IMG/VR virus record: IMGVR_UViG_3300017963_000082 | Source of the DNA: a virus | Reading direction: 5' to 3' (one strand) | DNA: 49,172 nucleotides | In this document: positions 14,437 through 49,172 of the stretch, one piece after another | Numbering within the stretch: the stretch's first letter is position 1 | Layout of the letters: the number at the start of each line of letters is the position of its first letter | Program-made: the position numbers and the translations under genes | Notes under the pieces: generated by a model | What the model saw: the letters and a program-made list of their open reading frames with translations, nothing else | What the model was told of the DNA's origin: nothing | The model's database searches: none

Positions 14437-14437
14437 T

Positions 14438-22552: not shown

Positions 22553-22729
22553 CTATGCGGGGGTTTCCTGTTTCGCCTTCCCCTTCCTATACTGTGGGCA
22601 GCCCTTGCGGTCAAAGCTACCGCGGCACTGGCTCACGAGCGCGGTACAGTTCAGGCAGATATTGATCTCCCGCTGCTTGGGGTTGTAGTTCAGCCGCGGC
22701 GTGGTCGTAGTCTTGGGTTTGGGGGTCAT
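22553..22729 (-). CDS. Small basic Cys-rich protein (58 aa), positioned where a late-gene regulator would be expected.
   Basis: It is not in the ORF track (<60 aa). The ATG at 22727..22729 overlaps the methylase TGA (ATGA), with the SD GGAGGTG upstream. The sequence is MTPKPKTTTTPRLNYNPKQREINICLNCTALVSQCRGSFDRKGCPQYRKGKAKQETPA. Confidence 0.5.
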   Translation of the reverse strand: MTPKPKTTTTPRLNYNPKQREINICLNCTALVSQCRGSFDRKGCPQYRKGKAKQETPA

Positions 22730-23400: not shown

Positions 23401-23675
23401 CCGTCCCTCCTCACCGCAGCCAGCACCTGATCCGCCTCGCGTTTCATCACCCACACCTGTACAATGTTCGCATCGCCTGCCGCGTCGGGATACCTGTCCA
23501 CCGCGTCCGCCAGGACCAGGACAATGCGGTTCATCCCGGTCATCATCATAGCCCAGCGGCTTTGCAGGTCGCCCAGGGCCGCACATTTGCAAAAGCACAT
23601 CATCAGCACCCCGAGTCCGCTAAAGACGATCGCGGTGAGGACGACTAGGATGAAACAGTGCGTGGTGGTGATCAT
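23397..23675 (-). CDS. Small membrane protein.
   Basis: The ATG at 23673..23675 overlaps the Dam-like stop (ATGA), with the SD GGAGGGA upstream. The N-terminal TM segment is MITTTHCFILVVLTAIVFSGLGVLMMCF. Confidence 0.5.
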   Translation of the reverse strand: MITTTHCFILVVLTAIVFSGLGVLMMCFCKCAALGDLQSRWAMMMTGMNRIVLVLADAVDRYPDAAGDANIVQVWVMKREADQVLAAVRRDG

Positions 23676-24532
23676 GGTATTCCCTCCATTGTCATCTGTT
23701 CCGGTTTCGCCAGTGCCTCGACGGTGCGCGGGGACAACCACAGAGACTCAATCCGCTTGCCGCCGCTGTTTGTTTGTGCCTCTTTGTCCACACGATGCCA
23801 CCCGTGGTCCTCGTACAGTTCGGTGTAGAGGGGGCAGGCGTAGCCACTGACGACGACGTAGCCGGCGCACAGTTTCAGCAGTTCCGCGCATTCCTGGTGA
23901 AACGACCGGGAAACCTCAAGCCGATAAATATCGGCTTGCGATCGCGTTTCCGGCAAGTAGGGCGGGTCAAAGTAGATCAAGGCGTCCGCGTTGTCGTACC
24001 GCTGGATCACGTCTTGCGCGTCACGGTTTTCAGTTTGAACTAACCGTAACCGCTCGGCGCAACTCTCCAATATGCCCTCAATCCCCACCCAGTTAGATGA
24101 TCCTGTGACACAATAAAATGTTGCGACTCGCCATGTCTTACTTGTCTTACTGTGGTGCCCTCCCTGCATCGACATCCAAGATGCCACAAAGAACCGCCGC
24201 GCCCGCTCCACCTCATCCTCGCACGGCTCAAGGCTCAATTCATACTCTGCCCTAGCCCACGGCGTCAACCGTATCTTTCGGATCAGTTCGTCCGGTTGAT
24301 CGCGCAGCACCCGAAAGAAGTTGACCACGTTCCCGTCGAGGTCGTTGTACGTCTCAAGCGGTGATCGTGGCTTCTGCAGCAACACGGACGCAGCACCCCC
24401 GCACGGCTCTACATAGTTCTGGTGCTCTGGGAAGTGAGAAATGATCCACGGTGCCAGTCGCCACTTGCCGCCATAGTAGCGCAGCGCCGGCCGCTTTGGT
24501 GCGTCTCGTGCTATGATCACCCTCTCCTCCAT
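23672..24532 (-). CDS. Dam-like (D12-class) N6-adenine DNA methyltransferase.
   Basis: Contains LRYYGGKWRLAPWIISHFP...YVEPCGGAASVLL...IYFDPPYL. The start is uncertain (ATG 24532 or GTG 24520), and the track ORF extends to 24694. Confidence 0.8.
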   Translation of the reverse strand: MEERVIIARDAPKRPALRYYGGKWRLAPWIISHFPEHQNYVEPCGGAASVLLQKPRSPLETYNDLDGNVVNFFRVLRDQPDELIRKIRLTPWARAEYELSLEPCEDEVERARRFFVASWMSMQGGHHSKTSKTWRVATFYCVTGSSNWVGIEGILESCAERLRLVQTENRDAQDVIQRYDNADALIYFDPPYLPETRSQADIYRLEVSRSFHQECAELLKLCAGYVVVSGYACPLYTELYEDHGWHRVDKEAQTNSGGKRIESLWLSPRTVEALAKPEQMTMEGIP

Positions 24533-24639
24533 TTCCTCCGGGTGGGGGCGTTCCGATCCATTCCACCCCCACCCTATAACGCGCCGGTTTCGGATGCACT
24601 GCCTGACCTCTACTCTCTCGGCTATGCCCGGCGCGTTGA

Positions 24640-24942
24640 CTACACTCTCCCAAACCAGCGCAGAACATCCTCGAGACCAGATGCAACGATACAACAGTCC
24701 GCGTGGTATTTGGTCATATAGTATTCAGCCACGGTCATATCATCCTTTAGTCCAGGCGGCTTGACCTCTACCATTACCATCGCCTCGCGTCCTAGTGGTA
24801 TGCTATACCCGATCACCAGTATGTCCAGCACCTTCCCGCCTACATTGTGTATATCCAGCACGCACAGTCCAGCATCGCGCAAGTCCTGCATTAGCTGCGC
24901 CTGGTTCGCGTCGGGTTTCGTGTGGCGCGGGCGTGCGGTCAT
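24640..24942 (-). CDS. VRR-NUC / PD-(D/E)xK-type nuclease-like protein.
   Basis: A 100-aa ORF with KPDANQAQLMQDLRDAGLCV...VLDILVIG...AMVMVEVKPPG (D...EVK motif). Confidence 0.55.
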   Translation of the reverse strand: MTARPRHTKPDANQAQLMQDLRDAGLCVLDIHNVGGKVLDILVIGYSIPLGREAMVMVEVKPPGLKDDMTVAEYYMTKYHADCCIVASGLEDVLRWFGRV

Positions 24943-27175: not shown

Positions 27176-27727
27176 CTAGTTGTATCCGTATGGGTTGCAC
27201 TCTGCGACTTGTAGAAACAGGTTGCCAGAACCGCCCGCCTCTCTCTCGCCGCCCTTATAGTCACATTTCACTTGGATCACAATGTCGTCTTTGGTCAGAC
27301 TTCCAGACTTGATGATAATATCGGCACCCCGGATCTGTATATCCTTGTCCGTTATGCCCGTTGGCATCGCCGGAATAGGGAACAGACCGCGCTTGATCAT
27401 TTGTAGAACCAGACGCTCTGCCTTTTTCCCCTTGACGGTCAAATGATCCGTCTCTGAGAAGCGCAGATAATCCCACACCTCAGACCGCACAGACAACGCC
27501 ACGCACTCTTTGATCTCGAATGGAGGCACCAAATAGCCGCTGGCCGTTGCCGTCTCAATTCCCTTTTGGTATCCGTTGACCTTGCGAAACAGTCCGCTAT
27601 GGATCGCCTCTATGCCTCGCCTGGTCGGATATACATAGAGCTTTTCCACAACAGGGCAGACATGAACGCGCAAATGACTATTCTCTGTCTGTATGCCGTG
27701 ATCAATTAGAGACGTGTTGCCCGGCAT
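27176..27727 (-). CDS. PD-(D/E)xK-like nuclease-fold protein (putative).
   Basis: Contains KGKKAERLVLQMIKRG...GADIIIKSG...DIVIQVKCD (an E...D...QxK arrangement). The start is uncertain (27727 or 27733), and it overlaps the end of the methylase gene. Confidence 0.4.
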   Translation of the reverse strand: MPGNTSLIDHGIQTENSHLRVHVCPVVEKLYVYPTRRGIEAIHSGLFRKVNGYQKGIETATASGYLVPPFEIKECVALSVRSEVWDYLRFSETDHLTVKGKKAERLVLQMIKRGLFPIPAMPTGITDKDIQIRGADIIIKSGSLTKDDIVIQVKCDYKGGEREAGGSGNLFLQVAECNPYGYN

Positions 27728-28832
27728 TCTCATTCCCCCAGGTATCCCATCCATCTGCGGTTGTCCGTGAGAACAACTCTATGCGTTGCCCGTGCGGATA
27801 TATCGTGTCTATGATCTCTCTGAATCGTTCCGGCTTCTCAGAGTGAACGTCTGACCGCTCGATCGTCTGAACGCTATCAAAGAGCTTTTGCACATCTGGC
27901 GTGCAGCTCCCGCGAGTGCAGATCAATAGCATCTCATGGCGCACACTGTTGTAATGCCCATAGTTGTGCCGCACCTTGTCCCACACAAACGAGGTCTTGT
28001 ACTTGAACCCCCACGACTTGATCAGGGGGAAACAGTCCTCGAGTAGTGGAGACGTGACCCACAAAAACAGTACGGCGTCTTTTGTGCAGCGCTCTTTGAT
28101 CTCTGTCCCCATAAGGCAAAGATCAGCCAGGCTCATAGGTGGATAATGTCGCTCGACGTGGCCGTAGTTGTCAGACTCACCGATCACGCCGCTGTTGCCA
28201 TATTCCCACGGGGGATCGGCGTACCATATGCGGTACTTGTCATCTGGCAGAGGGGGCGGATCTTGTTTTTGTCGGCGGGTGAGTTCGCGTCGAGCTTGGG
28301 GTATGGACTTCTCGCCGTTACGGACCTGCTCGAGTAGATCGGGGGCGTGCTGCTGTAGGCTCTTTGCGTCTTGGACATAGCGGGGATTAGTCTGAAAGAG
28401 TGCGGCGGCTTTTTCGCGGGCTTCCCCCATCTCACATTCCGGTATTATTTCCGCAATGTCAGTCCGTGTGCCTTGTCGGGCTTTTGCTTCCTTTTCTAGC
28501 ATCGGCAAAGCGTCTAGACTGATCGTCGCCCGCTGGCTGCTGCTCAAATGTCTCCTGTGCAAGTTCAAACTCACCACAAACGAGACGAGCGATCCGCCAT
28601 TGTTCCACGTTCTGAATCGTGGCTCTGTGTGCGTCTCTATGCACGCCCGGTGGCGGTTGCGCCCGTCGATAATACTCCCGTCCGGATGTAGCCAGATCGC
28701 CTCAAGTAGGCCATTCTCTGCTATGTCCTCTTTGAGCTGGTCAAAGTCTGGACCCTCGAGCAGCGGGAATAACTGTGCTACCGGGTGATACTTGCGATCG
28801 ATCTCTGCGTCCCAGTTAGTCATCGCCGCCAC
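27702..28832 (-). CDS. ParB-like N-terminal domain fused to an MT-A70-family adenine DNA methyltransferase.
   Basis: Contains LLEAIWLHPDGSIIDGRNRHRAC (ParB/Srx-like) and IWYADPPWEYGNSG...HYPPM...LFLWVT (MT-A70-like). Confidence 0.78.
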   Translation of the reverse strand: MAAMTNWDAEIDRKYHPVAQLFPLLEGPDFDQLKEDIAENGLLEAIWLHPDGSIIDGRNRHRACIETHTEPRFRTWNNGGSLVSFVVSLNLHRRHLSSSQRATISLDALPMLEKEAKARQGTRTDIAEIIPECEMGEAREKAAALFQTNPRYVQDAKSLQQHAPDLLEQVRNGEKSIPQARRELTRRQKQDPPPLPDDKYRIWYADPPWEYGNSGVIGESDNYGHVERHYPPMSLADLCLMGTEIKERCTKDAVLFLWVTSPLLEDCFPLIKSWGFKYKTSFVWDKVRHNYGHYNSVRHEMLLICTRGSCTPDVQKLFDSVQTIERSDVHSEKPERFREIIDTIYPHGQRIELFSRTTADGWDTWGNENAGQHVSN

Positions 28833-31403: not shown

Positions 31404-31439
31404 GTGGATGGCCTAGACGATCCAAAAGTGCATCAGCAC

Positions 31440-31577
31440 CACGACCGCGACCACGACCCCGACCGCGACCCCGACCGCGACCGCGACCGCGACCCCGACC
31501 GCGACCCCGACCGCGACCCCGACCGCGACCGCGACCACGACCGCGACCACGACCGCGACCACGACCGCGACCCCGAC
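31440..31577. repeat. Tandem hexanucleotide repeat (CNCGAC) x 23, 138 bp.
   Basis: Counted directly, N = a,g,a,c,g,c,g,g,g,c,g,c,g,c,g,g,a,g,a,g,a,g,c. There are no interruptions. Confidence 0.95.
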
Positions 31578-31608
31578 CAGTCGTATCCAGTCCGTGCGAT
31601 CGCTGCGT

Positions 31609-31962
31609 TCATTTCTGCGTCCTTGGGATCTTGATCTCCCATAGCTGTGCATCAACAATCGATCCGCGCCCAATGACCACAGGTCCGTCTACAGGTTCGC
31701 ACTCGTCTGGACCGTTGCTGAAAAAGTCCGAGAAACGCCCGGTATCAGCGATCCACGTCGCGTCCTCAAGCACCAATTCCTGGTTGCTGACGGACACAAG
31801 CCGACCGATCCAGTAGTTCGTCACGGTTCGGATGTGATATGCCTGTCCGAGTTTCCAAGGGCCCGGATCGCTGGTGACGTTCCCTGCTAACAATGCGGCA
31901 AGTTCTGCCAAGTTCGCGTCTGGAAAACGCTCTGCCAACACTACCAACTCGTTACAGTCCAT
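31609..31962 (-). CDS. Hypothetical protein (117 aa).
   Basis: Start set at the ATG 31960..31962 with the SD AAAGGAGAAAATGAG. The sequence begins MDCNELVVLAERFPDANLAEL.... The longer track ORF (to 32217) overlaps the upstream gene. Confidence 0.58.
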   Translation of the reverse strand: MDCNELVVLAERFPDANLAELAALLAGNVTSDPGPWKLGQAYHIRTVTNYWIGRLVSVSNQELVLEDATWIADTGRFSDFFSNGPDECEPVDGPVVIGRGSIVDAQLWEIKIPRTQK

Positions 31963-36962: not shown

Positions 36963-37568
36963 ATGACAGATCAACAGGTAAGCATTCCGGGCGTCAAGAT
37001 CGATCGATTCCAGATGACTATTGAGGGAGACACACCGCTGCTGTGCCACAAGTTCTCGGAGCGGTCCAAGCAGGCAATGCTTGACAAGCAGATGGGCCAG
37101 CCGCGCGGGCCGAAAGCGCCCAAAGATCCGCAACAAGACTACGAGGAATGCTTGTATGTGGGGGAGGATGGCTGGTACGGATTCCCCGCCGACGGCATCA
37201 AGAAAGCGTGTGTCGATACAGCCAAGCGATTCGTTGACGACCTGCACGGCACTGAGGCGCGAGGGGCGTTTTTCATCATTGCACAGGGCATTGACCGCTC
37301 GTCCGGGCAACCGCTCGTGATGCTCCAGGGTGAGCCGGAAATGCACGAGTCAATGGTGAGAATTGCACGCGGTACAAGTGACATCCGATACCGGGCAATG
37401 TTCCGCAAATGGTCCATCACTTTCGAGGTGCGTTACAATCCCAACGTGATCACACAAGCCGGGATCGTCAACCTGCTAGAGGCTGCCGGGTTCCACATTG
37501 GCATCGGCGACTGGCGGCCAGACAAAGACGGCACGTTCGGGATGTTCCACGTAGCACGGGGGAATTGA
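36963..37568 (+). CDS. Hypothetical protein (201 aa).
   Basis: The SD AAGGAGAAAAGGAC precedes the ATG at 36963. Contains ...GWYGFPADGIKKACVDTAKRF... and ...LLEAAGFHIGIGDWRPDKDGTFGMFHV. The family is not recognised. Confidence 0.6.
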   Translation: MTDQQVSIPGVKIDRFQMTIEGDTPLLCHKFSERSKQAMLDKQMGQPRGPKAPKDPQQDYEECLYVGEDGWYGFPADGIKKACVDTAKRFVDDLHGTEARGAFFIIAQGIDRSSGQPLVMLQGEPEMHESMVRIARGTSDIRYRAMFRKWSITFEVRYNPNVITQAGIVNLLEAAGFHIGIGDWRPDKDGTFGMFHVARGN

Positions 37569-37945
37569 TGAACCCAGTGACCACCCGCCTAGTTCTCACC
37601 GTCCTCTATGGCGTGGTGACGATGTACGCGCACGCCGATCACGCCGGGAACCCGTTGCGCTGTGGGGGCATCTACGACACCAGCCACGAGTGGGTAGCCG
37701 TCGACATTGACCACACCGACTGGCGATGCGGCGACCTCGCAACGATATGCGCCGCCGGGGTGTGCAAGACGCTGCCGGTACGCGACTCTGGCCCGCTGAG
37801 TAGGTACTGTGTGGAGGACGGCGACGTGTGCAGGCCGATCCTTGTGGACGTACCCGAGCACGTGGCGTGGTTTCCGGGGCTGTCGGCAAGGGCGGTCGTG
37901 GTGAATCGGTCACTGGCTGAACAGAGATTGGAGAGGGAGAGATGA
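37568..37945 (+). CDS. RlpA-like double-psi beta-barrel (DPBB) protein with an N-terminal signal/anchor.
   Basis: There is a TGATG junction with the upstream gene. The sequence is MNPVTTRLVLTVLYGVVTMYAHA... then GGIYDTSHEWVAVDID...LPVRDSGPL...ILVDVPEHVAWF. Confidence 0.5.
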   Translation: MNPVTTRLVLTVLYGVVTMYAHADHAGNPLRCGGIYDTSHEWVAVDIDHTDWRCGDLATICAAGVCKTLPVRDSGPLSRYCVEDGDVCRPILVDVPEHVAWFPGLSARAVVVNRSLAEQRLERER

Positions 37946-38244: not shown

Positions 38245-38927
38245 GTGCTGCCGCCTGGGTTGATCGCAAAGTAGGAGAACTGGAGGCCATTGCGCTTGCC
38301 GTCGTGGGGCGTGTTGCCTCGTGGGTAGCTCCGATCCCCGTGGCCGTGATGACAGCACGGGCGATCGCATTGATCTTTGACCTACCCGATCTGTGGGGAG
38401 GCATCACCGCCGCCGCGTTGGAATTGGTGGGAATGACTACGACCGCGCTCTGGTTGGACCTGAAAGAGTACAACCGCACAAAACGCAAGAGTGATCCAGA
38501 GGCGGGCGCAGGGCTTGCGCTGGGGATGATGGTCGCATACTTTGTGGTGGACTTGTCCATTATCGGCGTGATCACCGTCAAGGAAATACAGGACACCGGG
38601 AACTGGTCACGCCTGATCGCCGTCCTGTTCCCGGTGATGTCTGCCGTCGGCGTGATCGTCCTTAACCAGCGAGTACGGCACTACCACAGGCTCGCACAGA
38701 TCGACGTAGGCAAAGCGGAGCGCCGTAGCAAGCGATCGCATCCGTCGCAACCCACCGCACAACCTGCGGATGTCATTGTAGAGGTGCCCGTACCCGCCGC
38801 ATACCAGTGCGAACTGTGCGACGCAACATTCGATGACCCGCACAAGATCGGGCCGCATATGCGGTGGAAGCATCCGAACGGCAACGGCGTCAAGCCGCAC
38901 CGGGAGCGGGCAGAAGCGGAGGTGTAG
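38241..38927 (+). CDS. Polytopic membrane protein with a C-terminal classical C2H2 zinc finger.
   Basis: There are about four hydrophobic helices, followed by YQCELCDATFDDPHKIGPHMRWKH, which fits Y-x-C-x2-C-x3-F-x5-I-x2-H-x4-H. Confidence 0.62.
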   Translation: MSAAAWVDRKVGELEAIALAVVGRVASWVAPIPVAVMTARAIALIFDLPDLWGGITAAALELVGMTTTALWLDLKEYNRTKRKSDPEAGAGLALGMMVAYFVVDLSIIGVITVKEIQDTGNWSRLIAVLFPVMSAVGVIVLNQRVRHYHRLAQIDVGKAERRSKRSHPSQPTAQPADVIVEVPVPAAYQCELCDATFDDPHKIGPHMRWKHPNGNGVKPHRERAEAEV

Positions 38928-38928
38928 G

Positions 38929-39978
38929 GTGGCTTATACCGGCATACAAACAGGAACGCGCATCACAGCCAAGATAGACGAAAAGTCATCGATCTGGACA
39001 TACGTCAAGCAGGCGTGCATCGGTGCGGCGGCGATCGATCTGGCGTTGGCGTGTCTGATGACGATCGCTCTACTGATGGGCTGGTGGTCCGTGCCGGTTG
39101 TGTTCGTCCTGACGGGACTATTGATCGCGTGGACAGTCGTGCGCCTTGTACGTCCAGAGAGCATGGGCGTTAAGGTCATCGTGGGCAACCTTGCAGGGTT
39201 CGGGCTGATCCTGGGCGTGTTATTGGGGCGGCGTATCTGGCACTGGCTGCTACTAGGATCGGTACGGGACATCGTGGCGCAAGCGGGGGCGGCGATTGCA
39301 CTGCCCTGGTGGGCGTGGCTTATCGAGGCTGTGCTGTGGTTCGTGAGCGCCTGGAAAAAGCGTGGTAAACTCGTGGGCGGCGTGCTGGCGATCGGCACAC
39401 TTGGCTATGCCGGGTATCAGTTCGAGGGATGGGTACTCTTGTCCCTGATCTGGTCACGGCTGCGCTGGGCACTGATCCCATTCCTATGGCCTGTGATCGG
39501 GTTCGCCCTGTTCCTGGCGATCGTGATGTTCAAAGAGATGGCGCTGCCCAATTGGGAATGGACAATGCGCCCTGTGTCGCTCGAGGAGGTCCGCGAGATC
39601 GGCTTAGTGGGGCTATGGTTCCCGCACCTATTCGGTGGACCACCACCTGATCCGATGCCTGATCGACACGTCAAAGTCGAGGTGCTGGAGAATGGAGGAA
39701 AGACCAGCAAGATCGGGTTGCTGCCAGATACATTTGCTGCACGGGCCTTTTATGCCGCCGTTCATCGTGGGGAACCGTTCACCTCACGTACCGCCCGGAA
39801 ATATGGCGTGAGTCTAGTCGTATTCAACAAGAGGATCAGAGATGTATTCTTTGACCGGGGGTGGGCAGAATGGGAAGACGAGGAACACCACGAACAGGGG
39901 ATCAACGTCTTTCCAAACGGAATGCAGACGATTGAGCACTTGGCATTGACTGGCACAACCCCCTCCCCTACTGGCTGA
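38929..39978 (+). CDS. Polytopic membrane protein with a soluble C-terminal domain.
   Basis: Start set at the GTG 38929, in frame with track ORF 38833..39978. There are about seven to eight hydrophobic segments, and the C-terminal ~110 aa are hydrophilic. Confidence 0.55.
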   Translation: MAYTGIQTGTRITAKIDEKSSIWTYVKQACIGAAAIDLALACLMTIALLMGWWSVPVVFVLTGLLIAWTVVRLVRPESMGVKVIVGNLAGFGLILGVLLGRRIWHWLLLGSVRDIVAQAGAAIALPWWAWLIEAVLWFVSAWKKRGKLVGGVLAIGTLGYAGYQFEGWVLLSLIWSRLRWALIPFLWPVIGFALFLAIVMFKEMALPNWEWTMRPVSLEEVREIGLVGLWFPHLFGGPPPDPMPDRHVKVEVLENGGKTSKIGLLPDTFAARAFYAAVHRGEPFTSRTARKYGVSLVVFNKRIRDVFFDRGWAEWEDEEHHEQGINVFPNGMQTIEHLALTGTTPSPTG

Positions 39979-40292: not shown

Positions 40293-40499
40293 ATGTATTG
40301 TCAACTTTGTGGAAAGCTGATATACACGATCGGCGGCCTGTGCAAAGAGTGCTCACCTGAGCTACATCGCAAATGGGAGGAACGACGCGAGGCGGTCAAT
40401 GCCCTCTGTGATGAGTACGAGGCAGAAACAGGGATCAGTGCTCTCGCAAACTGGACAGCATTTGAGGACTGGTGTACAGAAAAGGAGGCGATGGGGTGA
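40293..40499 (+). CDS. Small zinc-ribbon protein.
   Basis: A 68-aa ORF, MYCQLCGKLIYTIGGLCKECSP..., with the SD GGAGGGG upstream. Confidence 0.55.
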   Translation: MYCQLCGKLIYTIGGLCKECSPELHRKWEERREAVNALCDEYEAETGISALANWTAFEDWCTEKEAMG

Positions 40500-41200
40500 T
40501 AGACCACCTCGGTCCGTACCTGCTAGGCCCAAACGACACGCCCGAGAACGGGATATACACGGGCGATGCGCGGGAACTGGCGAAGGCGATACCGGATGAG
40601 AGTGTGGATCTTGTGTTCACGGATCCACCATATCCAAAGCAGTATGCTGGCGTGTGGCCTGTTCTCCGCATACTCGGGGAGACATTGAGGAATGGTCGCC
40701 GCCTGATGACTCTGTGCGGACATTATCAGATCCCTGAAGTGCTGGCTGTAATAGGCATATCACTCACTTATGACTGGATCATAGCAAACACAGCACCCGG
40801 TAAGACTGCGGCAATGTTTCAAAAAAGAGTATGGGCAACCTGGAAGCCGTGCCTAGTATTTAGACGGGGAACACTCGATAAGTACGCCAATTTCGCAAAT
40901 GATCTGTTCGTATCTGACAAGACGGCATTTACCCATGCAAAAGAGTTTCACCGGTGGGGTCAGGGGGCTCCGTTTTTTGCATACTACATAGATCGGTGGT
41001 CGGAACCTGGCGATATAATCGTGGATCCCTTCACCGGCGGCGGCACCGTCCCCGCTGTCTGCAAAATGCTAGGCCGCCGCTACCTCGCCTTCGAGATCGA
41101 CCCCGACACGGCACAACTAGCCCGCGACCGTGTACGTGACACACAACCACCCTTGTTTGTACCGGAACCGGAACAGCTACCGTTTGACGACGTAAGGTGA
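40496..41200 (+). CDS. DNA methyltransferase, N4/N6 (N6_N4_Mtase-like).
   Basis: Start set at the GTG 40496, in a GTGA overlap, with the SD AAAGGAGG upstream. Contains LVFTDPPYPKQY and IIVDPFTGGGTVPAVCKMLG. Confidence 0.78.
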   Translation: MIDHLGPYLLGPNDTPENGIYTGDARELAKAIPDESVDLVFTDPPYPKQYAGVWPVLRILGETLRNGRRLMTLCGHYQIPEVLAVIGISLTYDWIIANTAPGKTAAMFQKRVWATWKPCLVFRRGTLDKYANFANDLFVSDKTAFTHAKEFHRWGQGAPFFAYYIDRWSEPGDIIVDPFTGGGTVPAVCKMLGRRYLAFEIDPDTAQLARDRVRDTQPPLFVPEPEQLPFDDVR

Positions 41201-41261: not shown

Positions 41262-41564
41262 CTAGGGTGACTTCTCAGCCACCTTGACCGCTCGACGTGT
41301 CACGTCCTCCCCAACATACGCCGCGAGAATGATCGCCTCTGCCGACATCGCCATCCACACGTCACGGATCGCCTCGGGGATCAACGATAGCCCGAACACC
41401 ATCGACGCCGTGAGGAATGCCGTCAACAGCTTCCACTCCCACGCCGGCCACGCCTTCCAGGTGTTCTCCTGTGCCACGAGCCGGAATCCCTCCAAGATGT
41501 ACGGCACAAAGAATCTTAGAGCGCATCCTAGAAGCCAAAGTCCAACCACTGCCCAGATAGTCAT
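41262..41564 (-). CDS. Holin-like three-TM membrane protein.
   Basis: A 100-aa ORF with three hydrophobic segments and a charged C-terminus (TRRAVKVAEKSP). It is the last gene of the late operon. Confidence 0.5.
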   Translation of the reverse strand: MTIWAVVGLWLLGCALRFFVPYILEGFRLVAQENTWKAWPAWEWKLLTAFLTASMVFGLSLIPEAIRDVWMAMSAEAIILAAYVGEDVTRRAVKVAEKSP

Positions 41565-41565
41565 G

Positions 41566-42138
41566 TCACCACCATCCTTTCAACATCGCAATCAGGGATT
41601 CACCCCCCACACCCGCACCGGCCGCCAGAATGGCCAGCACGACCACTAGATACCTGATTCGTGAGACCCGCTTGTGTAGCGCCTGGATCTCGATCTTGTT
41701 TTCTGCACATTCCCGGTAGGTCATGATCACCTCTCTGTATTTCTGCATAATAGCTCTGATCGTGTCGCCTGGTACGTGTTTCTGTAGGACATTCCACGCA
41801 CCGTGGGCTAGGTGTTGGTTGATCTGTTCCCGATCCAGATACGCCGATAGCACCAGTGCTGGGCCTTTGCGCTGTTCTACCCAGTGCTGCAGTAGCACCG
41901 CACCATCCCCGTTCAGGTGTAGGTCCAGGATCAGTATGTCCGCCTCGTCAATGGTCTCAAGCGCCATCCCCAGCGAGTCAGCGGCAAATACTGTAAACCG
42001 CATTGACGTGAGGATCTGGTGTAGCAGTCGCCTTTCAACTGGGTCATCCTCAACGATCTGGACCGCAATCTCGTCAGACAAAATGGGCCTCCGGTCACGT
42101 GTCGAACTCGAATCTAGTATGCCCTGTGACATTCTCAA
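41566..42138 (-). CDS. Response-regulator receiver (REC) domain protein with a coiled-coil linker and a C-terminal TM anchor.
   Basis: Contains VQIVEDDP (acidic pair), ILILDLHL (phospho-acceptor Asp), LVLSAY (Thr/Ser position) and LQKHVP (Lys). A helical region and YLVVVLAILAAGAGVGG follow. Confidence 0.68.
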   Translation of the reverse strand: MRMSQGILDSSSTRDRRPILSDEIAVQIVEDDPVERRLLHQILTSMRFTVFAADSLGMALETIDEADILILDLHLNGDGAVLLQHWVEQRKGPALVLSAYLDREQINQHLAHGAWNVLQKHVPGDTIRAIMQKYREVIMTYRECAENKIEIQALHKRVSRIRYLVVVLAILAAGAGVGGESLIAMLKGWW

Positions 42139-43711
42139 ACGCGGCGCGGATCTCGCTGCGAACGATAGCGCGTACCTGTTCCTCTGTCAGCGCGTGACAC
42201 TCTGTCGGCGGCGGGTCAGGGGGGTCGGGCGGCTCGGGATCTGTGCCGTCCTCGAACCATTTCAGGTCGTCTACATAGATGTCGTTGTGTTTCAGCCTCC
42301 ACTTGTTCCAGGCACGGATGTAGACGGTCATTGCCCCGTCCTGCGCCTCTACCTTTTGACTGGCGTAGGTTTCATAGTTGGCGGTCACTCGCTGCCAAGG
42401 GGACCACACGATCCCCTGGGCTTGTGCGTCCTCGCGCCCGTACGGGTCAAGACCCAGGGATACGTACAGCTCCCCGTCTGCCGTGTGCGGATTGTCGCTG
42501 TCCGAGCACCACGCCTGTCCCTCGACGGTGAAATAGTACCGCTTGCCCTGTGTGACCGGCACGACCTGTCGCACGCCGCCATCCATCACCTTGTACTGAA
42601 TGAACCAGCATTGGGCGCTCAATCCCTCGGCGACACGGTGCGGATCGATCGCAATCGGCGCTTCCTTGTACTCAGGCATAGCAAGCGGCCCTTGGTTCTG
42701 CTCTGCCGGCGGATCGCCCTCGTTGAACCAAAACTTCCAGCCCGCGGCAACAAACGCGGTCCCGGCCTGCTTTTCATACGGCTGCTCAAAACTCGGGTTG
42801 ATCACTGTCCCCTCCTGTGGTGGGTCTGGCGGTTCCGGCTCATCTGTCCAGGTGTACTCTTCCGACTGCGCCTTTTGCCAGTCGGCGATCACGTGGTCTT
42901 TGCCTTGGATGCTGTACTTGTCGTACTTGGGCCAGCGGTACAGGATTAGCGCCCTGATCGTCTGGTGCGTCGGGTCTTGGTTCCACTCGTTGATCTCTCG
43001 GTATGCCTCCTGGCACCACGTATTAGGGGCGTCCAGCCATACCGCGTTCTGGTTAGTCTCGGTGATGTATGCAGGCCGGTCACGATAGCGGGGCGGGATT
43101 GCCGCCATCCAGTCCCGGTACGTCTGGAACCCGTTAAAGTATGCCCCGTATGGCGCGTCCATCTTGTCGGGCGCGGTGATAGACGCCGGGTTTGCGCCTC
43201 GGCTGTACACGTGCAAAGCAAACCCGTCCACGTCCTCTACCGCCTCGATCAGCCTGGCGAAATACTCGATCCAGTCATAGCCGATCTGGATATTCCAGGG
43301 TGCCACGGCGGGCAGTAGCACATCACCGTCAATAACGTCCCGGCAGCGGTCATACACGTGCGCCACATAGGGCGGCTCGAGAGGCCACACGTCGGGCCAT
43401 TCCTGCGCGTGGTTGGGTTCGTTGGCAACGGTCCAGATGTCACATCCCCGGCTGTTCTGTGCCAGTGTCTCGACGCGGTACATAAAGCCGTCCAGGTGCT
43501 CCGGCTTGGGGATACACCCACCACCAACACCCCACTCGTGTTGTATGCGACAGATCACCCCATATCCAGCGTCAGCCCACGGGCGAAAGTCAATGCCGGG
43601 ATGTGGCGTGCTGCTATGTCCTGTTTCAGCCAGAAACAAGATCCAGCCCTTCGGCATCACGTCAAAGGGCATTGCCTCGTGGCACCCCTGCAGGTACGGA
43701 CTTGTCGGCAT
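42095..43711 (-). CDS. Clan GH-A-like TIM-barrel glycoside hydrolase with a C-terminal CBM-like jelly-roll.
   Basis: Contains TVANEPNH (NEP acid/base-type motif) and AYITETNQ (nucleophile-type Glu). A PEPPDPPQ linker follows, then INPSFEQ...GWKFW...YYFTVEGQAW...IYVDDLKWF. Confidence 0.62.
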   Translation of the reverse strand: MPTSPYLQGCHEAMPFDVMPKGWILFLAETGHSSTPHPGIDFRPWADAGYGVICRIQHEWGVGGGCIPKPEHLDGFMYRVETLAQNSRGCDIWTVANEPNHAQEWPDVWPLEPPYVAHVYDRCRDVIDGDVLLPAVAPWNIQIGYDWIEYFARLIEAVEDVDGFALHVYSRGANPASITAPDKMDAPYGAYFNGFQTYRDWMAAIPPRYRDRPAYITETNQNAVWLDAPNTWCQEAYREINEWNQDPTHQTIRALILYRWPKYDKYSIQGKDHVIADWQKAQSEEYTWTDEPEPPDPPQEGTVINPSFEQPYEKQAGTAFVAAGWKFWFNEGDPPAEQNQGPLAMPEYKEAPIAIDPHRVAEGLSAQCWFIQYKVMDGGVRQVVPVTQGKRYYFTVEGQAWCSDSDNPHTADGELYVSLGLDPYGREDAQAQGIVWSPWQRVTANYETYASQKVEAQDGAMTVYIRAWNKWRLKHNDIYVDDLKWFEDGTDPEPPDPPDPPPTECHALTEEQVRAIVRSEIRAAFENVTGHTRFEFDT

Positions 43712-43713
43712 AG

Positions 43714-44529
43714 CTACACTCCAAACAGTGCGCGGGTCTGATAGAACATCAGGTCACAGAGGGTATCGCTGAGATAGGCGGCGGCAATACCAGCGAGAGA
43801 GACGCGCCCCTGGTAGTGGTTTGCACCGCCAGAACGTGCCCCTATCGTGAATGCGCTTGTACTATTAAACACTGATGCGCGGGCTGTGGCTTGATTAACC
43901 TCTGTCCCATTCACGATAATATCTACGTTGGTCGATGGATCGAACCGCCCGACAACAAAGTACCAATTGTTTACCGACACCGCCGCGCTCGTCGCTGTAT
44001 CGCTGTTCGTGCCGTCATCGCTGATGGTAAACGTGAATTGATCAGACGCATCGATGCGAAGTCTGTATGAGCGCGTTCCAGCCCCCACCCACTTGGTTAT
44101 AATATCCTCTAGCGTGGATGTCTCCTCTGGGTACAACCACGCCCAGCATGTTAGCCCGTTGTCATTAACCCACGGTTCCGCTGCTGCTGTAGCTACGATG
44201 TCAAAAGCGTTAGAGCTTGCCGCGTCTGTGATCGAGTGATAGTCTCCAGTGCCGTCATAGGCAACGTATGGGATGATGCCGTCATAGTCGAATTGGGGAT
44301 TTCCGTTCAGCGTCAGGTGATTGCCGAGCCCCTGAACGTCAATGAGTTCACCCGAGACACCAGCCGGGCCACAGGGCCACAGACCACGCAGCACGGGGAT
44401 CATTAGCATCGTCGATATAGCGTGACTGAATGCGTGCTGGTTCCACTTCTGGACCTCGACACGCCGCGATCCCCGCGTTTCTTTTTCAAGCCCAGCAACC
44501 TTTTTGACTAGAACCCGATCTATGCTCAT
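43714..44529 (-). CDS. LamG/concanavalin-like domain protein, a candidate receptor-binding protein.
   Basis: Contains ...LTLNGNPQFDYDG...LTCWAWLYPE...YRLRIDASDQFTFTISDDG...NNWYFVVGRFD...IIVNG.... It is the last tail gene. Confidence 0.55.
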   Translation of the reverse strand: MSIDRVLVKKVAGLEKETRGSRRVEVQKWNQHAFSHAISTMLMIPVLRGLWPCGPAGVSGELIDVQGLGNHLTLNGNPQFDYDGIIPYVAYDGTGDYHSITDAASSNAFDIVATAAAEPWVNDNGLTCWAWLYPEETSTLEDIITKWVGAGTRSYRLRIDASDQFTFTISDDGTNSDTATSAAVSVNNWYFVVGRFDPSTNVDIIVNGTEVNQATARASVFNSTSAFTIGARSGGANHYQGRVSLAGIAAAYLSDTLCDLMFYQTRALFGV

Positions 44530-45632
44530 ACTGGCGCCTCATATTCCAAACGCACGCTAACCCGCTCCCCACTATTCGGGGCAATGTCCAATTGCACTGC
44601 CTTGATGATCGCCTCAAACTCGAGTTCCCTGTACCTGGCGATCACCCGGTCGCCCCAATTCCACGCCACGCCAAACCGCGTCCCGCGCGTGTCCACCGGT
44701 TGCGAACTGAAATAGATCCGCGACCGCTTCAACTCAAGCATCGCCCGCGCTTCCTCACGAACGCCGTCTGCGTCCTCCTCAAGCCGGGCATCTGCGTAGC
44801 CCTCCGCCCGCGCCCAGAATGAAGCGGTTGAGCTGGTTGTATCCTCTACCTCTTGCTGTTCGCGGTCCTCTCCCTCGCCTTGCCCCAGGCCGTAGATGTA
44901 GTTCTTTTCGTCCGTCCAGTCCTGAATGTAGGACGGGTCGCGCATGTTGCCGCGGTACTGGTCGAACACGACCTGGTTAGCCCCGCTTGTCAGATCCGCG
45001 CCCGGCTGCCCGGTCGCCGTCCGAAAGTCCCACGATAGCGTGGTAGTGGACGGGATCGGCACGACGTCGAAAAAGACCTCTGTCCCTTCCGCCCGGCTGG
45101 CCTCTTGCAGGTCTTGGAGCACGTCTAGCACATTGCGCCAGGCGAACTGCTTGGTCAGCGTCGGCCCTGCGGACACATCGGCCTGGATGGTGAATAGCGT
45201 GGACATATCCCGGTCGCCGCCTGCCGTCGCGCCTAAGTTCTCCTCGACGATCTCTTTCATCATATCGTCACTGGCGTCTGTCTTTGCGGCTTCATCTGTC
45301 CCCGCCGCGTATGCCACGATGCGACGGCCCAAGATGTCCTTGCCGTCGTAGCCTTTGACCACGATCGTTTCCTCGCTGCCCACTGTCTGATATTTCGGCC
45401 TACGGATCAGGTAAGCGTCAAACAGGGATAGCGTACCGCCTGCAGGCCCGCGCCATAGATGCCACTGCCAGTCCTTGTTGAGCAGCGAGTCATCAAAGTT
45501 GCCCTTGAGCACGACGCTGATCATCCCCCGGTCGCCGTCCACCTTGGAGGCGGTCACGGACAGGAAGTCATCAACCAGCAGCTTCCGGTTGCCTTGATCG
45601 TCCGCTAGCCACAGTTCATAGTTACCGGCCAT
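44526..45632 (-). CDS. Tal-like baseplate hub / minor tail protein.
   Basis: A 368-aa ORF directly after the Dit-like gene. The N-terminus is MAGNYELWLADDQGNRKLLVDDFLSV.... The assignment rests on position, size and general resemblance. Confidence 0.55.
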   Translation of the reverse strand: MAGNYELWLADDQGNRKLLVDDFLSVTASKVDGDRGMISVVLKGNFDDSLLNKDWQWHLWRGPAGGTLSLFDAYLIRRPKYQTVGSEETIVVKGYDGKDILGRRIVAYAAGTDEAAKTDASDDMMKEIVEENLGATAGGDRDMSTLFTIQADVSAGPTLTKQFAWRNVLDVLQDLQEASRAEGTEVFFDVVPIPSTTTLSWDFRTATGQPGADLTSGANQVVFDQYRGNMRDPSYIQDWTDEKNYIYGLGQGEGEDREQQEVEDTTSSTASFWARAEGYADARLEEDADGVREEARAMLELKRSRIYFSSQPVDTRGTRFGVAWNWGDRVIARYRELEFEAIIKAVQLDIAPNSGERVSVRLEYEAPV

Positions 45633-48217
45633 TAGTCGTCACACCCCGCCCACTGTGTACGCCATTCCATCGTGGCGGTGATGGTGGCGCCGGTGTTGTC
45701 CACGAAACACGTTACCTGGTTGGTGCCGGGGTTCAGTCGCCACGTTCCAAAGTCGGAATTTGGGAGAACCGCGCCGGGCACCTCGCCAGCGAACGAGGAC
45801 ACGACTGTCTTGTTCTCTGGTGCGAGGTCGATGGTTAGCGTCTCGCCGTCTTGGAGGTCATAGTCGAATAGGAGTTCTAAGCCCAAGGTTTCGTTGCGTA
45901 TTTGTATCAGCTTGGCCGAAGTTCCTCCCGATCTTTCTATCGTAAAGATTGGAAAAGCCTCCGCAGTCCCGTCATTGCTTACATCCACAGTGCCAGCCAG
46001 ATTTCCGGCGCCGGTAGCATCCAGGCCCAGATACACATCATAATTACGGGTTATGACGGGATCCGGTGGACCAAACTCAAACTCCTCCAAATATATGATT
46101 CCTGCCGGCAGACTTATATCAAGACCGACCCACGATGAGCCATTCCACCGTGCTGTCTGTTCTGGAACGGAAATGCCCCCAATTGTCGTAAACGCACCAG
46201 CAGCATAAAGAACCCCATCAGGCGCGAGGCCCAACCGATACACAATATCATTTGCCCCGGTCCCTAATGGTTCCCAGATTGCCCCTCGTGTCTTAGCAAC
46301 TCGATCCGCATTTGCATCCCCGCTTGCATTTGTGAACGATCCGCCAATGTAAATGACCCCATCTGACCCGATCTCGATAGCGTATGTCTGTCCAGTCAGC
46401 GAATCATCGGCTACTGCATTCCAGCTTGAACCGTCCCAGCGTGCAATATCGGTTAGGGCGACTCCTCCCATAGAGGTAAAGCTGCCCACCACATAGACAT
46501 CGCCATTAGGCGCTACCGCGACCTCATATACAATTCCACCCCCGCTCACGCCCACATCTGGCGCCGCATAAGCCGACCCATCCCAGGTCACAACCCCATC
46601 TGCATTGGCGATGCCATTCCAGTTGGTGAAACTCCCGACTATCCACAAAAGACCATCAGCATCAAATGCCAAGTCACGAACAATTCCTGTTCCACCACCA
46701 GACACCGCAGACCAGTTTGCGCCATCCCACTGTGCAATATAGTCAGCGTTTGCATCTCCGGCGACGTTAGTGAAATTGCCTCCAGCATAGATTGTCCCAT
46801 CTGGGCCCTCAATCAGTACAGCAATTCCACCTCCAACCGTCGCAAAGTCACCATTTCCCCCTACCGTCTCCCAGGTGTCTGTCTGAGGGTTGTATCGTGC
46901 AACATAGTCTCGGCCTGCGACACCATCCCAACCAGTAAACGGCCCTCCAATATACAAGTAACCATCTGAGGCGTACAGCATTGCCGTAACCCATCCCCCG
47001 GTGGTTGGGTTCGCTGTCAGCCCCAAATCATCCCACTGTCCCGTGCTCCGCAACCTTCCAGCGATGTACCTCCATGTCGCTGAATCCTCCACATCCAGCA
47101 CCGCCGCCTCGTTCCCGATCTCCTTCCAGAATGGGTCATCGGCGATAAACCGGAACGCCACACGCTCCCAACACGGAAAGCGTCCGTTGATGCGCAGCTC
47201 TAGCCCCGCCTCGTAGTGCGCCGCCAGTTCCTTCTCAGTCGCCGCACCAGTGTACCGGAACCGTACCGGCTGTGGGTCGCCGTCCACGTATGGGTAAGCA
47301 TTCGGCCTGAATAGGGCGATCAGCGCCTCACGTGCCGCGTGAACATCTGCCAGGTCGTCAAATCCAATGCCCACCGTGTCCGTGATCGCACCGGTCAGCG
47401 TGAATGCCAGCGATCCCTCACGGACGCTGGTCATCTCGCCACCGGGGAGAATGGCGTACTCTTGCAGTCCCAACTCCTGCGGGGGCATTCCGGTGCCATC
47501 CATCCGGGCGATCTCAAAGTAGTAGTCTGTCAGCGGACGCACACGGCCACCGGCACGGGACAGCGCCGAGCGGCTGGATGTGCTGGCATTCTCCGCGCCG
47601 TTCCACTCGCAGCCCTCTTGTCCGCCGTCGCAGTAGGTGGTATAGTAGCCGGTCTTCTGTTCGACCTGGATACCGTCAATGTTAAAGTCGCCCGCGCCCG
47701 CGCCGTTTTGTCGGATGTAGAGTGTGGTGGACCCGTTCGCCTGCGCAGCGGGGAATTGCAAGCCAAACAGGTTCCAGTTTGTATCGTAGGACTTGAGCAG
47801 CGTCGGCGTGGTGTACGTCGCATTGTCAAGCGACCAGTCCCAGGTTGCAGGGAGTGTGCCCGTCACGCGCACCGTCACATAATGGATCGCGTTGTCCAAT
47901 GCCTGCAGCGTGACCGATCCGCCCTCATTGTTCGCGGCGGTCTGGATGCGGTACGAATAGACACCGACCCACTGCGCGGTTGTCACGCGGGTCATTGTCC
48001 CGCCACCCACGGCGGCAAAGTTGCCCGCGATCTCTCCGCTCGGGTTCAGCGTCTCATTGTCTGTCGCTTCCGGTACGACGATCGACCAGATGCCCATGTA
48101 ACAGTCTCCTCTATCGCACGCGGCGAAGGGCAGATAAACCGTGTACGTCTCCTGCGCTTCCACCGCACCGCACGCCACCAAACACAGAGCCAGCAAAAGC
48201 GTAGTGAGTTTTTTCAT
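45632..48217 (-). CDS. Evolved Dit-like distal tail protein with an N-terminal CBM-like domain, a ~6-7-blade beta-propeller insertion and a possible N-terminal lipoprotein signal.
   Basis: The C-terminus is FPIFTIERSGG...IQIRNETLGLELLFDYDLQDGETLTIDLAPENKTV...WRLNPGTNQV (Dit-type). The repeated blades read G(G/S)xFT...A(D/N)...WDG..W. The N-terminus is MKKLTTLLLALCLVAC. An alternative ATG at 48097 has the strong SD AGAGGAGA. Confidence 0.62.
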   Translation of the reverse strand: MKKLTTLLLALCLVACGAVEAQETYTVYLPFAACDRGDCYMGIWSIVVPEATDNETLNPSGEIAGNFAAVGGGTMTRVTTAQWVGVYSYRIQTAANNEGGSVTLQALDNAIHYVTVRVTGTLPATWDWSLDNATYTTPTLLKSYDTNWNLFGLQFPAAQANGSTTLYIRQNGAGAGDFNIDGIQVEQKTGYYTTYCDGGQEGCEWNGAENASTSSRSALSRAGGRVRPLTDYYFEIARMDGTGMPPQELGLQEYAILPGGEMTSVREGSLAFTLTGAITDTVGIGFDDLADVHAAREALIALFRPNAYPYVDGDPQPVRFRYTGAATEKELAAHYEAGLELRINGRFPCWERVAFRFIADDPFWKEIGNEAAVLDVEDSATWRYIAGRLRSTGQWDDLGLTANPTTGGWVTAMLYASDGYLYIGGPFTGWDGVAGRDYVARYNPQTDTWETVGGNGDFATVGGGIAVLIEGPDGTIYAGGNFTNVAGDANADYIAQWDGANWSAVSGGGTGIVRDLAFDADGLLWIVGSFTNWNGIANADGVVTWDGSAYAAPDVGVSGGGIVYEVAVAPNGDVYVVGSFTSMGGVALTDIARWDGSSWNAVADDSLTGQTYAIEIGSDGVIYIGGSFTNASGDANADRVAKTRGAIWEPLGTGANDIVYRLGLAPDGVLYAAGAFTTIGGISVPEQTARWNGSSWVGLDISLPAGIIYLEEFEFGPPDPVITRNYDVYLGLDATGAGNLAGTVDVSNDGTAEAFPIFTIERSGGTSAKLIQIRNETLGLELLFDYDLQDGETLTIDLAPENKTVVSSFAGEVPGAVLPNSDFGTWRLNPGTNQVTCFVDNTGATITATMEWRTQWAGCDD

Positions 48218-48232
48218 TGCCTATCCGTTCTG

Positions 48233-49172
48233 TCAGTTCATCGAGTTCAGCAGGTCAAAGTCCTGGATGACGCTGGATTGCGTCGCCCTCGTGTTGACGG
48301 TCAAGTTGTTGTTGGTGATCGGCTGGACCATCACGCGCTCAGGGGTTGCACCCTCACCGACCAACATCCGACGCGGGCCCCCGAAGCCGGGACCGACCAT
48401 TCCATCGAACCCGGTCTGGAAACCCTCTTGGAGACCTGTATCTGTCGGGCGTGCAGTGGTTGTAGGTGGTACTGCTGAACTTGTACCGCGCTCCGTGATC
48501 ACAACCTCAATATCAACCCGTTTCTTGTCCGGTATGTCATCGATCAGCGTGGCTAATTCCTCAACCTCATCTTGCCCCGTGCTGGCGCTCATAATGACAT
48601 CTTGCAGCGCTTCGTCAAAGTCCGTTGCCGCGATCTCGCCAGCGCCAAAATCACCGACCAGCTCCAAGATGCTAGAGGAGAGCCGGATGCTTTCCTCGTC
48701 TGCAAGACCAAAAGCGATCTGCGTTTCTGTCACAGCAGTCGCGTAATCTTCGGCGGTGATCGTGTCCTCTGCCATCAACTCACCCAACTCAGTGATCGCC
48801 GCCGATGCTATTTGTGCGTCTGTTGCACCCATCAGACTCTGCTGGAGGTTTGTTTGTTCTGTCGCTGCTGCTTTTGCCGCTTCTGTCTGTGCGGTCAGCG
48901 TTTCGAGATATGTCGGCGCCGCCGCAATAGCCGCATCCTGTGCTGCCTGTGCCGACGCGATCGCTTGCGCGTACTGGTTGTGTGCTAGTGTCGAATCGCC
49001 AGCGGGGACAATGCCATTTCTAACCGTCTCCTGGTAGGATAGCATCGCAGCGCTGGTTGTCTCGATTGCTTCCTGTTCCAATGTGAACCCGTAGCGCACC
49101 TCCTCAGATGCTACCTGAAAGTCAGTCTGTGCTGCCACCTGCCGCTTGAGTGAGTTCTCAAATTCGTCCAGA
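48233..49172 (-). CDS. Tape measure protein, C-terminal part, continuous with 1..1028 through the terminal repeat.
   Basis: The ORF 48233..49138 has no true start: its first codons RQVAAQTDFQVASEEV continue the frame read at bases 1..123. It is Ala/Thr/Gln-rich and helical. Confidence 0.85.
   Translation of the reverse strand, partial: LDEFENSLKRQVAAQTDFQVASEEVRYGFTLEQEAIETTSAAMLSYQETVRNGIVPAGDSTLAHNQYAQAIASAQAAQDAAIAAAPTYLETLTAQTEAAKAAATEQTNLQQSLMGATDAQIASAAITELGELMAEDTITAEDYATAVTETQIAFGLADEESIRLSSSILELVGDFGAGEIAATDFDEALQDVIMSASTGQDEVEELATLIDDIPDKKRVDIEVVITERGTSSAVPPTTTARPTDTGLQEGFQTGFDGMVGPGFGGPRRMLVGEGATPERVMVQPITNNNLTVNTRATQSSVIQDFDLLNSMN
49050..49172. repeat. Contig-terminal direct repeat, copy 2 (identical to 1..123).
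   Basis: Read directly. Confidence 0.95.

Follow-up and report, generated by a model that had tools for sequence, protein, structure and literature searches.

What would a phage do with a response-regulator receiver domain that is tethered to the membrane and encoded between a candidate endolysin and a candidate holin? The question is raised by a gene that we call REC-TM (receiver domain, REC; transmembrane, TM), which lies at the 3' end of the late operon in IMG/VR virus record IMGVR_UViG_3300017963_000082. This record, of 49,172 nucleotides (nt), was analysed as a whole and is referred to here as the window; all positions refer to it. The initial annotation had read REC-TM as a receiver domain without an output domain, carried on a 190-amino-acid (aa) open reading frame (ORF). 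We find that REC-TM belongs to a large family of metagenomic proteins in which a receiver runs, through a helix of quantised length, into a C-terminal membrane anchor. Genomic context suggests that REC-TM is a tail-anchored, phosphorylation-switchable regulator of the phage lysis module, a reading that we regard as plausible and hold with a little less than even confidence.

The REC-TM gene and its receiver domain

The features of the gene, its product and its two neighbours are as follows, with REC-TM residues numbered by the 171-aa protein.

41566-42081, minus strand: REC-TM gene, 171 aa; TTG start at 42081, stop codon at 41566-41568
42088-42092, minus strand: ribosome-binding site GGAGG, 6 nt upstream of the TTG start
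41728-42069, minus strand: receiver (REC) domain, aa 5-118; E11/D12, acceptor D53, S79 and K101 (then H102, no Pro)
41650-41727, minus strand: helical linker, aa 119-144; continuous with α5, heptad a/d hydrophobic spacing, basic patch at its end
41569-41649, minus strand: C-terminal membrane anchor, aa 145-171; apolar Gly/Ala-rich LVVVLAILAAGAGVGG, then E-S and the amphipathic tail LIAMLKGWW
42095-43711, minus strand: clan GH-A-type glycosidase, 538 aa, endolysin candidate
41262-41564, minus strand: small membrane protein, 100 aa, holin candidate; ATG 1 nt after the REC-TM stop

The 190-aa ORF is present in the sequence as the maximal reading frame (41566-42138, minus strand), but the likely protein is shorter. 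The TTG at 42081 is most likely the start, giving 171 aa, and an independent JGI gene call (P0001) is the same 171-aa protein with the same start. With this start REC-TM does not overlap the glycosidase gene, as had been thought; the TTG lies 13 nt after the glycosidase stop. At its other end the gene adjoins the small multi-TM gene as described, with 1 nt between the REC-TM stop and the next ATG and a convergent methylase gene beyond. Given this tight packing, REC-TM is probably co-translated with the glycosidase and the small multi-TM protein, and the 1-nt spacing suggests translational coupling of the 100-aa ORF to REC-TM.

The assignment of the N-terminal part is supported by profile, sequence and structure comparisons. 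Pfam Response_reg (PF00072) matches at 48.4 bits (cut-off 30.2; E = 1.2e-12) over profile positions 1-109 of 111, and phmmer against the PDB returned receiver domains only. An AlphaFold2 model of REC-TM built with 43 relatives (predicted local distance difference test (pLDDT) 94.2) has the (βα)5 fold, with five strands and five helices, and Foldseek superposed it on the receivers of KdpE, PmrA, Spo0F and PhoP with TM-scores of 0.85-0.89 and root mean squared deviations (r.m.s.d.) of 1.4-1.7 Å. The canonical phospho-receiver residues that the initial annotation had picked out (an acidic pair, an acceptor Asp, a Ser and a Lys) are all where a receiver would have them. In the model E11 and D12 follow β1, D53 lies at the end of β3, S79 at the end of β4 and K101 after β5, and the same residues align with their counterparts in 8svz, 4yn8 and other PDB receivers. 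By sequence and model, the N-terminal part of REC-TM is thus a genuine receiver domain with an intact predicted phospho-acceptor pocket; it is an ordinary member of the receiver superfamily, with all the defining features but Lys-Pro. The full protein matches Response_reg only in Pfam, in agreement with the earlier view that it has no output domain.

A conserved family with a phase-locked membrane helix

An exhaustive HMMER search of 1.84 billion representatives gave 452 matches at E ≤ 1e-3, the best 150 of which were used for all family statistics. The arrangement of REC, helical linker and C-terminal hydrophobic segment is present in 113 of these 150, in proteins of 140-220 aa that are 25-39% identical to the window protein. 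The acceptor Asp (D53) is kept in 106 of the 113 (94%), the first acidic residue (E/D11) in 100, Ser/Thr at position 79 in 92 and Lys/Arg at position 101 in 103. Retention of the phospho-site across 25-39% identity argues that its chemistry is in use. The family also has residues of its own: W67 and P74 (each 112/113), Y115 (101/113) and Asn or His at position 97. W67, P74 and Y115 are not known from ordinary receivers, in which position 97 is usually Asp.

All family members come from metagenomes (JGI, ENA and Logan), and a metagenome pattern scan yielded 20 true members. When GenBank phages were searched by tblastn, using as queries the window protein and three other, diverse sequences of the family, no family member was found, only weak REC-only matches to ordinary regulators. 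In IMG/VR, a scan for the motif GAWNVLxKP gave one chance match and a single-protein scan gave none. The 25 motif matches in GTDB genomes were chance matches or ordinary, longer response regulators, with no prophage copy among them, and there is therefore no direct host assignment. The C-terminal tails of ten family members matched no known Pfam family, only sub-threshold coiled-coil noise. Two simple explanations of the ORF were rejected: a chance reading frame, by a design conserved in more than 100 clusters, and a virion or tail protein, by the membrane anchor and the lack of any structural-protein match.

In the AlphaFold2 model a single helix spans residues 105-170, such that α5, linker and anchor are unbroken. 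The most hydrophobic segment of REC-TM lies at aa 142-165 (Kyte-Doolittle peak 2.2) and is preceded by the basic stretch K137-R138...R141-I142-R143; basic residues in this position would place REC on the cytoplasmic side. There is no N-terminal signal, and the lone hydrophobic segment is near the C terminus, as in tail-anchored proteins. The prediction of membrane association is solid. Across the family the anchor begins with an apolar stretch of about 16 residues, rich in Ala and Gly, and goes on with a near-invariant Gly (96/112), a Pro/acidic break and an amphipathic tail of 10-14 residues.

In the column profile the hydrophobic positions of the linker (125, 128, 132, 135, 139, 142, 146 and 149) follow a 3-4-3-4 heptad pattern that runs into the anchor. 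The distance from Y115 to L142 takes few values, being 20 residues in 62 members, 27 in 24, 16 in 17 and 34 in 2 (105 of 113 in total), with steps of 7 or 11 residues. The window protein is in the 27-residue class and so has a 7-residue insertion, one extra heptad, compared with most family members. Linker lengths quantised in this way would keep the angular phase of α5 relative to the membrane helix within a narrow range, as expected for a mechanical signal passing along a rigid helix or coiled coil.

Genomic context and a proposed role in lysis

About 25 distinct genomic contexts of REC-TM relatives were recovered, nearly all of them clearly phage, and about 22 could be evaluated for neighbours by simple ORF calling and hydropathy thresholds, with no dedicated topology predictor. 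Two positions predominate. The gene lies at the distal end of the tail operon in the window and in contexts L002, L003, L006, L010, L037, L039 and L056, and immediately upstream of the terminase genes in L041, L042, L043 and L047. Both the end of the tail operon and the site before the terminase are classical positions of lysis cassettes. Terminase, capsid and lipoprotein labels in L041-L057 were read from translated ORFs and had no family-library matches, with the exception of the terminase-small-subunit-like ORF of L047 and the DUF2292-like ORF, each of which gave a weak library match.

A small multi-TM ORF directly adjoins REC-TM in 13 of the approximately 22 evaluable contexts, compared with a background of only 1-3 small multi-TM proteins among the approximately 79 ORFs of the window. 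The order glycosidase, REC-TM, small TM ORF and strand switch recurs in L002 and L003, at 37-39% REC identity, and a small TM ORF is also found beside REC-TM in L010, L037, L039, L042, L043, L048, L050, L056, L058 and L061. The adjoining small multi-TM ORFs form at least five mutually unrelated families, listed here by context and, where given, length.

Family 1: window-100, L002-105, L039-141
Family 2: L003-132, L010-115, L056-115, L058, L008
Family 3: L037-67
Family 4: L042-62
Family 5: L043-93, L048-97

A fixed position filled by diverse sequences is a pattern typical of holins. In L050 the ORF that precedes REC-TM shares 4 nt with it and is similar to PHROG 1299, a family annotated 'holin', at E = 6e-11; this is the sole link to an already named lysis family. 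The recurrent small multi-TM neighbours and this one named match lend indirect support to the initial reading of REC-TM as an antiholin or lysis regulator gated by phosphorylation.

The window itself has the same arrangement: REC-TM is flanked by the sole lysin candidate on one side and by a holin-like ORF on the other, both of them predicted rather than proven lysis genes. That the upstream gene encodes a glycosidase, as initially annotated, is supported by fold and motifs. Its AlphaFold2 model (pLDDT 91.5) comprises a TIM barrel (aa 1-290), a β-sandwich resembling a carbohydrate-binding module (CBM; approximately aa 305-488), a linker rich in Pro and, at the C terminus, a helix, and in Foldseek the 538-aa protein resembled enzymes of the GH5, GH30 and GH39 families that carry CBM6/4/16/61 modules. 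N97-E98 (NEP), E218 (ITETN), H167 and Y169 are conserved among its relatives, and NEP and ITETN are invariant; clan GH-A enzymes are recognised by such an acid/base and nucleophile. The catalytic domain has homologues in which it is joined to Amidase_2, LysM, Peptidase_M23, muramidase, GH108 and SH3_3 domains, partners that point to cell-wall substrates, and a few match PF11790 (Glyco_hydro_cc). The layout of an N-terminal catalytic and a C-terminal binding domain is like that of monoderm endolysins. The protein has neither a signal peptide nor a hydrophobic segment and would therefore need a holin to reach the wall. Pfam and PHROG scans of the complete genome found no other lysin or holin family, and by these scans the 538-aa protein is the only lysin candidate. 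Several homologues of its catalytic domain are named proteins of Anaerolineae, Caldilineaceae or Chloroflexota metagenome-assembled genomes, and it is on these that we tentatively base a likely Chloroflexota host.

Downstream, the 100-aa ORF has the general layout of a holin, being small, membrane-embedded by prediction and close to the lysin candidate, with a charged C terminus (EDVTRRAVKVAEKSP). Initially described as holin-like with three TM segments, it has two clear hydrophobic segments (1-24 and 45-66) and a weak third at 69-85. No homologues were found beyond the ORFs that take its place in L002 and L039.

Other genes recur near REC-TM. The CBM-like β-sandwich is found beside it with an N-terminal TM anchor and no catalytic domain in L039 (9065-9967), L053 (upstream ORF) and L056 (3823-4152). 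In L058 (417-1559) a 3-TM holin-like protein is fused to the CBM-like domain also found in the glycosidase, a gene fusion that would link the components of the module functionally. A conserved soluble ORF of 66-96 aa, weakly similar to DUF2292 (E = 0.014), lies immediately upstream of REC-TM in L041, L047, L054 and L059, loci in which the terminase genes come next after REC-TM, and may be a second partner of the family. Judged by eye from translations, genes that look like substrate-binding lipoproteins of the BMP family (PnrA-like) are found near REC-TM in two loci unrelated to each other, in L042 (2-1075) and immediately downstream in L046; these may be phage morons or markers of prophage borders.

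We propose the following mechanism for REC-TM as a regulator of lysis. Late in infection, REC-TM would enter the cytoplasmic membrane and keep its REC domain on the inner side. The genome was found to have no recognisable kinase, Hpt or output domain (Pfam scans contained no HisKA or HATPase_c; five large ORFs, in 8518-11273, 13105-18975 and 44526-45632, were compared with PHROGs only), and the phosphoryl group on D53 is therefore proposed to come from a histidine kinase of the host or from a small donor molecule, acetyl phosphate for example. The modified receiver would change shape at its α4-β5-α5 face, and rigid coupling of α5 to the membrane helix would alter the oligomeric state of the anchor helices or rotate them. 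As a result the holin-type protein next door would be either restrained or set free, and the access of the glycosidase to the wall would be timed in this way. Put most fully, the receiver would read the phosphorylation state of the host (a histidine kinase or the acetyl-phosphate/energy pool) and gate the holin in the membrane through the rigid, phase-locked helix; REC-TM would be a phospho-regulated antiholin or holin activator, widespread in probable Chloroflexota phages, that tunes lysis to physiology or cell density. We offer this fuller version tentatively and with low confidence. An i-spanin was considered and rejected, as such a protein would need its TM segment at the opposite end and the helices of REC-TM lie in the cytoplasm.

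Several observations weigh against a lysis regulator of this kind. The window protein has Lys-His (K101-H102) where 101 of 113 family members have Lys-Pro, and so lacks the usual cis-Pro, although Lys-Pro is a common and non-obligatory motif in receivers; Ser/Thr or Lys is missing in approximately 10-20% of family members. The apolar part of the anchor is short, about 16 residues before the Gly/Pro break, so the topology is uncertain: of the helical stretch and single C-terminal TM helix initially described, the helix and the membrane anchor hold, and a full crossing of the bilayer is unproven. Neither neighbour in the window is a named lysis protein. Sequence searches of Pfam, PHROG and the PDB gave no match for the 538-aa protein, which belongs to no established peptidoglycan-hydrolase family and, since it follows tail-fibre genes, could be a virion-associated depolymerase; the 100-aa ORF has no match in Pfam or PHROG and falls in no known holin family. 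Among the relatives, an adjacent small TM ORF is missing in about 9 of the 22 evaluable contexts, and most of those present match no known holin family; most neighbouring ORFs likewise match no known lysin family. Settings also vary, as read from translations: REC-TM is between the DUF2292-like ORF and the terminase genes in L041 and L047, directly after a major-capsid-like ORF in L057, before a β-helix protein in L045 and beside a lipoprotein gene in L046.

These observations leave room for other functions. A tethered receiver could act as a decoy or phosphate sink that drains or blocks a membrane histidine kinase of the host (for example, a KdpD-type or envelope-stress kinase) and blunts the host response, and its place among lysis genes would then be incidental, as accessory genes often gather at the ends of operons. 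A complete orphan REC in a genome with no kinase, Hpt or output domain found would suit such a sink, as would the KdpE-type receivers that are its nearest cellular and structural relatives and the family members that have no adjoining small membrane ORF. We nevertheless consider it unlikely: expression from the far end of the late operon would come at a time when little is gained by rewiring host transcription, the phase-locked linker suggests that a signal enters the membrane helix, beyond mere tethering, and the enrichment of adjoining small multi-TM ORFs, a PHROG holin among them, would go unexplained. The topology of REC-TM, with a cytoplasmic domain, coiled coil and C-terminal anchor, and its place in a monoderm-style lysis cassette would fit, too, an accessory subunit of a two-part holin that works independently of phosphorylation, analogous to XhlA of PBSX, REC being a pseudo-receiver used for dimerisation or as a scaffold. 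The window protein without Lys-Pro, and the 9%-19% of members without Lys or Ser/Thr, would be at ease in this role, but an acceptor Asp in 106 of 113 members and an acidic pair in approximately 90% are hard to explain without metal and phosphoryl chemistry, and the C-terminal tails have no similarity to XhlA or to any Pfam family; we judge it decidedly improbable.

A phosphorylation-regulated membrane protein might also serve a purpose unrelated to lysis, such as superinfection exclusion, control of DNA entry or exit, or late membrane remodelling. This we hold to be very improbable. The gene does occur in various positions (upstream of the terminase, behind a capsid-like gene, next to lipoprotein genes) and none of its neighbours in the window has a proven function, but both main positions are the classical lysis-cassette sites, and small multi-TM ORFs and the CBM/glycosidase module are frequent companions. 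We thus retain the regulation of lysis as our preferred reading, at the strength given above.

Genome setting and relation to known systems

The window has an exact 123-bp direct repeat at its ends (1-123 is identical to 49050-49172), such that the assembly closes into a circle in which 49,049 bases are unique. It is the complete genome, of 49,049 bp, of an uncultivated tailed phage; the cut point of the circle falls within a tape-measure-like gene, upstream of Dit. A JGI metagenome holds a near-identical contig of 49,085 bases. No similarity of the genome to any GenBank phage was found at the DNA or protein level, and megablast of 19 kb of the window returned nothing. The minus-strand order opens with replication genes and several DNA methylases, continues with terminase, portal, protease/capsid and connector genes, and crosses the junction into the tail genes; the late operon terminates with the glycosidase/REC-TM/100-aa cassette, facing a plus-strand methylase gene.

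20532-21815, minus strand: large terminase
16675-18975, minus strand: portal
13105-14436, minus strand: protease and major capsid protein
Minus strand, following these: connector genes, then, across the junction, the tape-measure-like gene
45632-48217, minus strand: Dit
44526-45632, minus strand: Gp37-type tail protein
43714-44529, minus strand: Laminin_G_3 protein
40472-41200, plus strand: methylase, convergent with the cassette, ending at 41200

Some other features of this genome were noted. Four DNA methyltransferase genes (22726-23598, 23672-24694 and 27702-28832, all minus strand, and 40472-41200, plus strand), namely two N6_N4, one D12/Dam-like and one MT-A70, make up an anti-restriction set that is unusually large for a genome of 49 kb. 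Modification enzymes are clustered between capsid and connector genes (7772-12577, minus strand). The cluster has an ORF that looks like a sulfotransferase (7772-8767), a methyltransferase (8518-9615), a glycosyltransferase of 571 aa (9558-11273) and an ORF like nucleotide-sugar transferases (11274-11927), which suggests that virion proteins or host glycans are glycosylated or modified in some other way. In translation, a module of about 30 aa, 'ADIVL(T/K)QGQS.P..MQTRY(R/K)DMGDGTHA.VV', is found at the N termini of three neighbouring minus-strand ORFs (6124-6882; 6884-7108, with two copies; 7114-7782), and a related motif, 'YRDVGDGTHALVV', in ORF 16122-16490 (minus strand). The hexanucleotide ACCGCG is repeated in tandem 23.5 times at 31438-31578 and reads on the minus strand as a (V/A/G)n stretch in ORF 31413-31673, the apparent multi-TM product of which is probably an artefact of the repeat, or else a protein of low complexity.

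Two plus-strand ORFs lie in the region before the convergent methylase. One (38833-39978; 349-381 aa), which belongs to the module on the other strand, facing the lysis cassette, has at least four TM segments and a soluble C-terminal domain and matches nothing in Pfam or PHROG. The other, of 125 aa (approximately 37568-37945), has an N terminus like a signal peptide (…VVTMYAHA) and a Cys-rich body, with no Pfam or PDB match; by eye it looks like a wall-binding protein of the double-psi β-barrel or 3D-domain kind and could be a second wall-active protein.

Parts of REC-TM have counterparts in described systems. The single-domain response regulators CheY, Spo0F, DivK and CpdR likewise consist of a receiver with the phospho-site residues and no enzymatic or DNA-binding output, and act through protein-protein contacts; they are soluble, whereas in REC-TM α5 continues into a coiled-coil-like linker and an anchor, and the gene is phage-encoded with no gene for a partner kinase. 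The receiver of KdpE, of the OmpR family, is closest to the REC part in both sequence (27-30% identity) and structure (r.m.s.d. 1.4-1.7 Å), but KdpE has a winged-helix DNA-binding output, of which REC-TM has none, and REC-TM has the family invariants W67, P74, Y115 and N/H97. In LytSR-LrgAB/CidAB, too, two-component phosphorylation is tied to membrane proteins of the holin/antiholin type. LytSR is chromosomal and acts on transcription through a LytTR DNA-binding regulator; the receiver of REC-TM, by contrast, would itself sit at the membrane, next to the holin candidate, which would imply post-translational control.

On the lysis side, the phage antiholins λ S107, phage 21 S21-71, T4 RI/RIII and P1 LydB are, like REC-TM, small and mostly membrane-located, and regulate the timing of lysis from within or near the holin-endolysin cassette. 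Those of λ and phage 21 are N-terminal variants of the holin, and T4 RI senses a periplasmic signal; to our knowledge none of the four has a receiver domain or known control by phosphorylation. In PBSX, XhlA has a cytoplasmic helical domain and a C-terminal TM segment and is encoded beside holin and lysin. XhlA and other monoderm two-component holins thus share with REC-TM a cytoplasmic helical region, a single C-terminal TM segment and this position, but XhlA has no REC, and no similarity was detectable: the full REC-TM protein did not match XhlA (PF10779), and ten family tails gave no match to it at E ≤ 5. A literature search gave nothing relevant on links between phage receivers and holins, on membrane-anchored response regulators or on phospho-regulated antiholins. 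As a whole, REC-TM matches no described response-regulator architecture that we found, nor any described antiholin.

Whatever its function, REC-TM represents a large and coherent receiver family with a membrane helix as its output, which is unusual for response regulators and might be of use as a minimal phospho-to-membrane switch. Its surroundings provide candidate lysis cassettes in phages of poorly studied hosts, with a GH-A glycosidase and CBM and several new families of small membrane proteins. The timing of lysis is a central fitness trait of phages, and known antiholins respond to membrane potential or superinfection; we know of none that is wired to two-component phosphorylation. If REC-TM does gate lysis, it would constitute a new category of lysis control. 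Environmentally tuned lysis timing would then become testable with simple point mutants (D53A and D53E), and phages of this kind would be using the phosphorylation signalling of their host to decide when to burst it.

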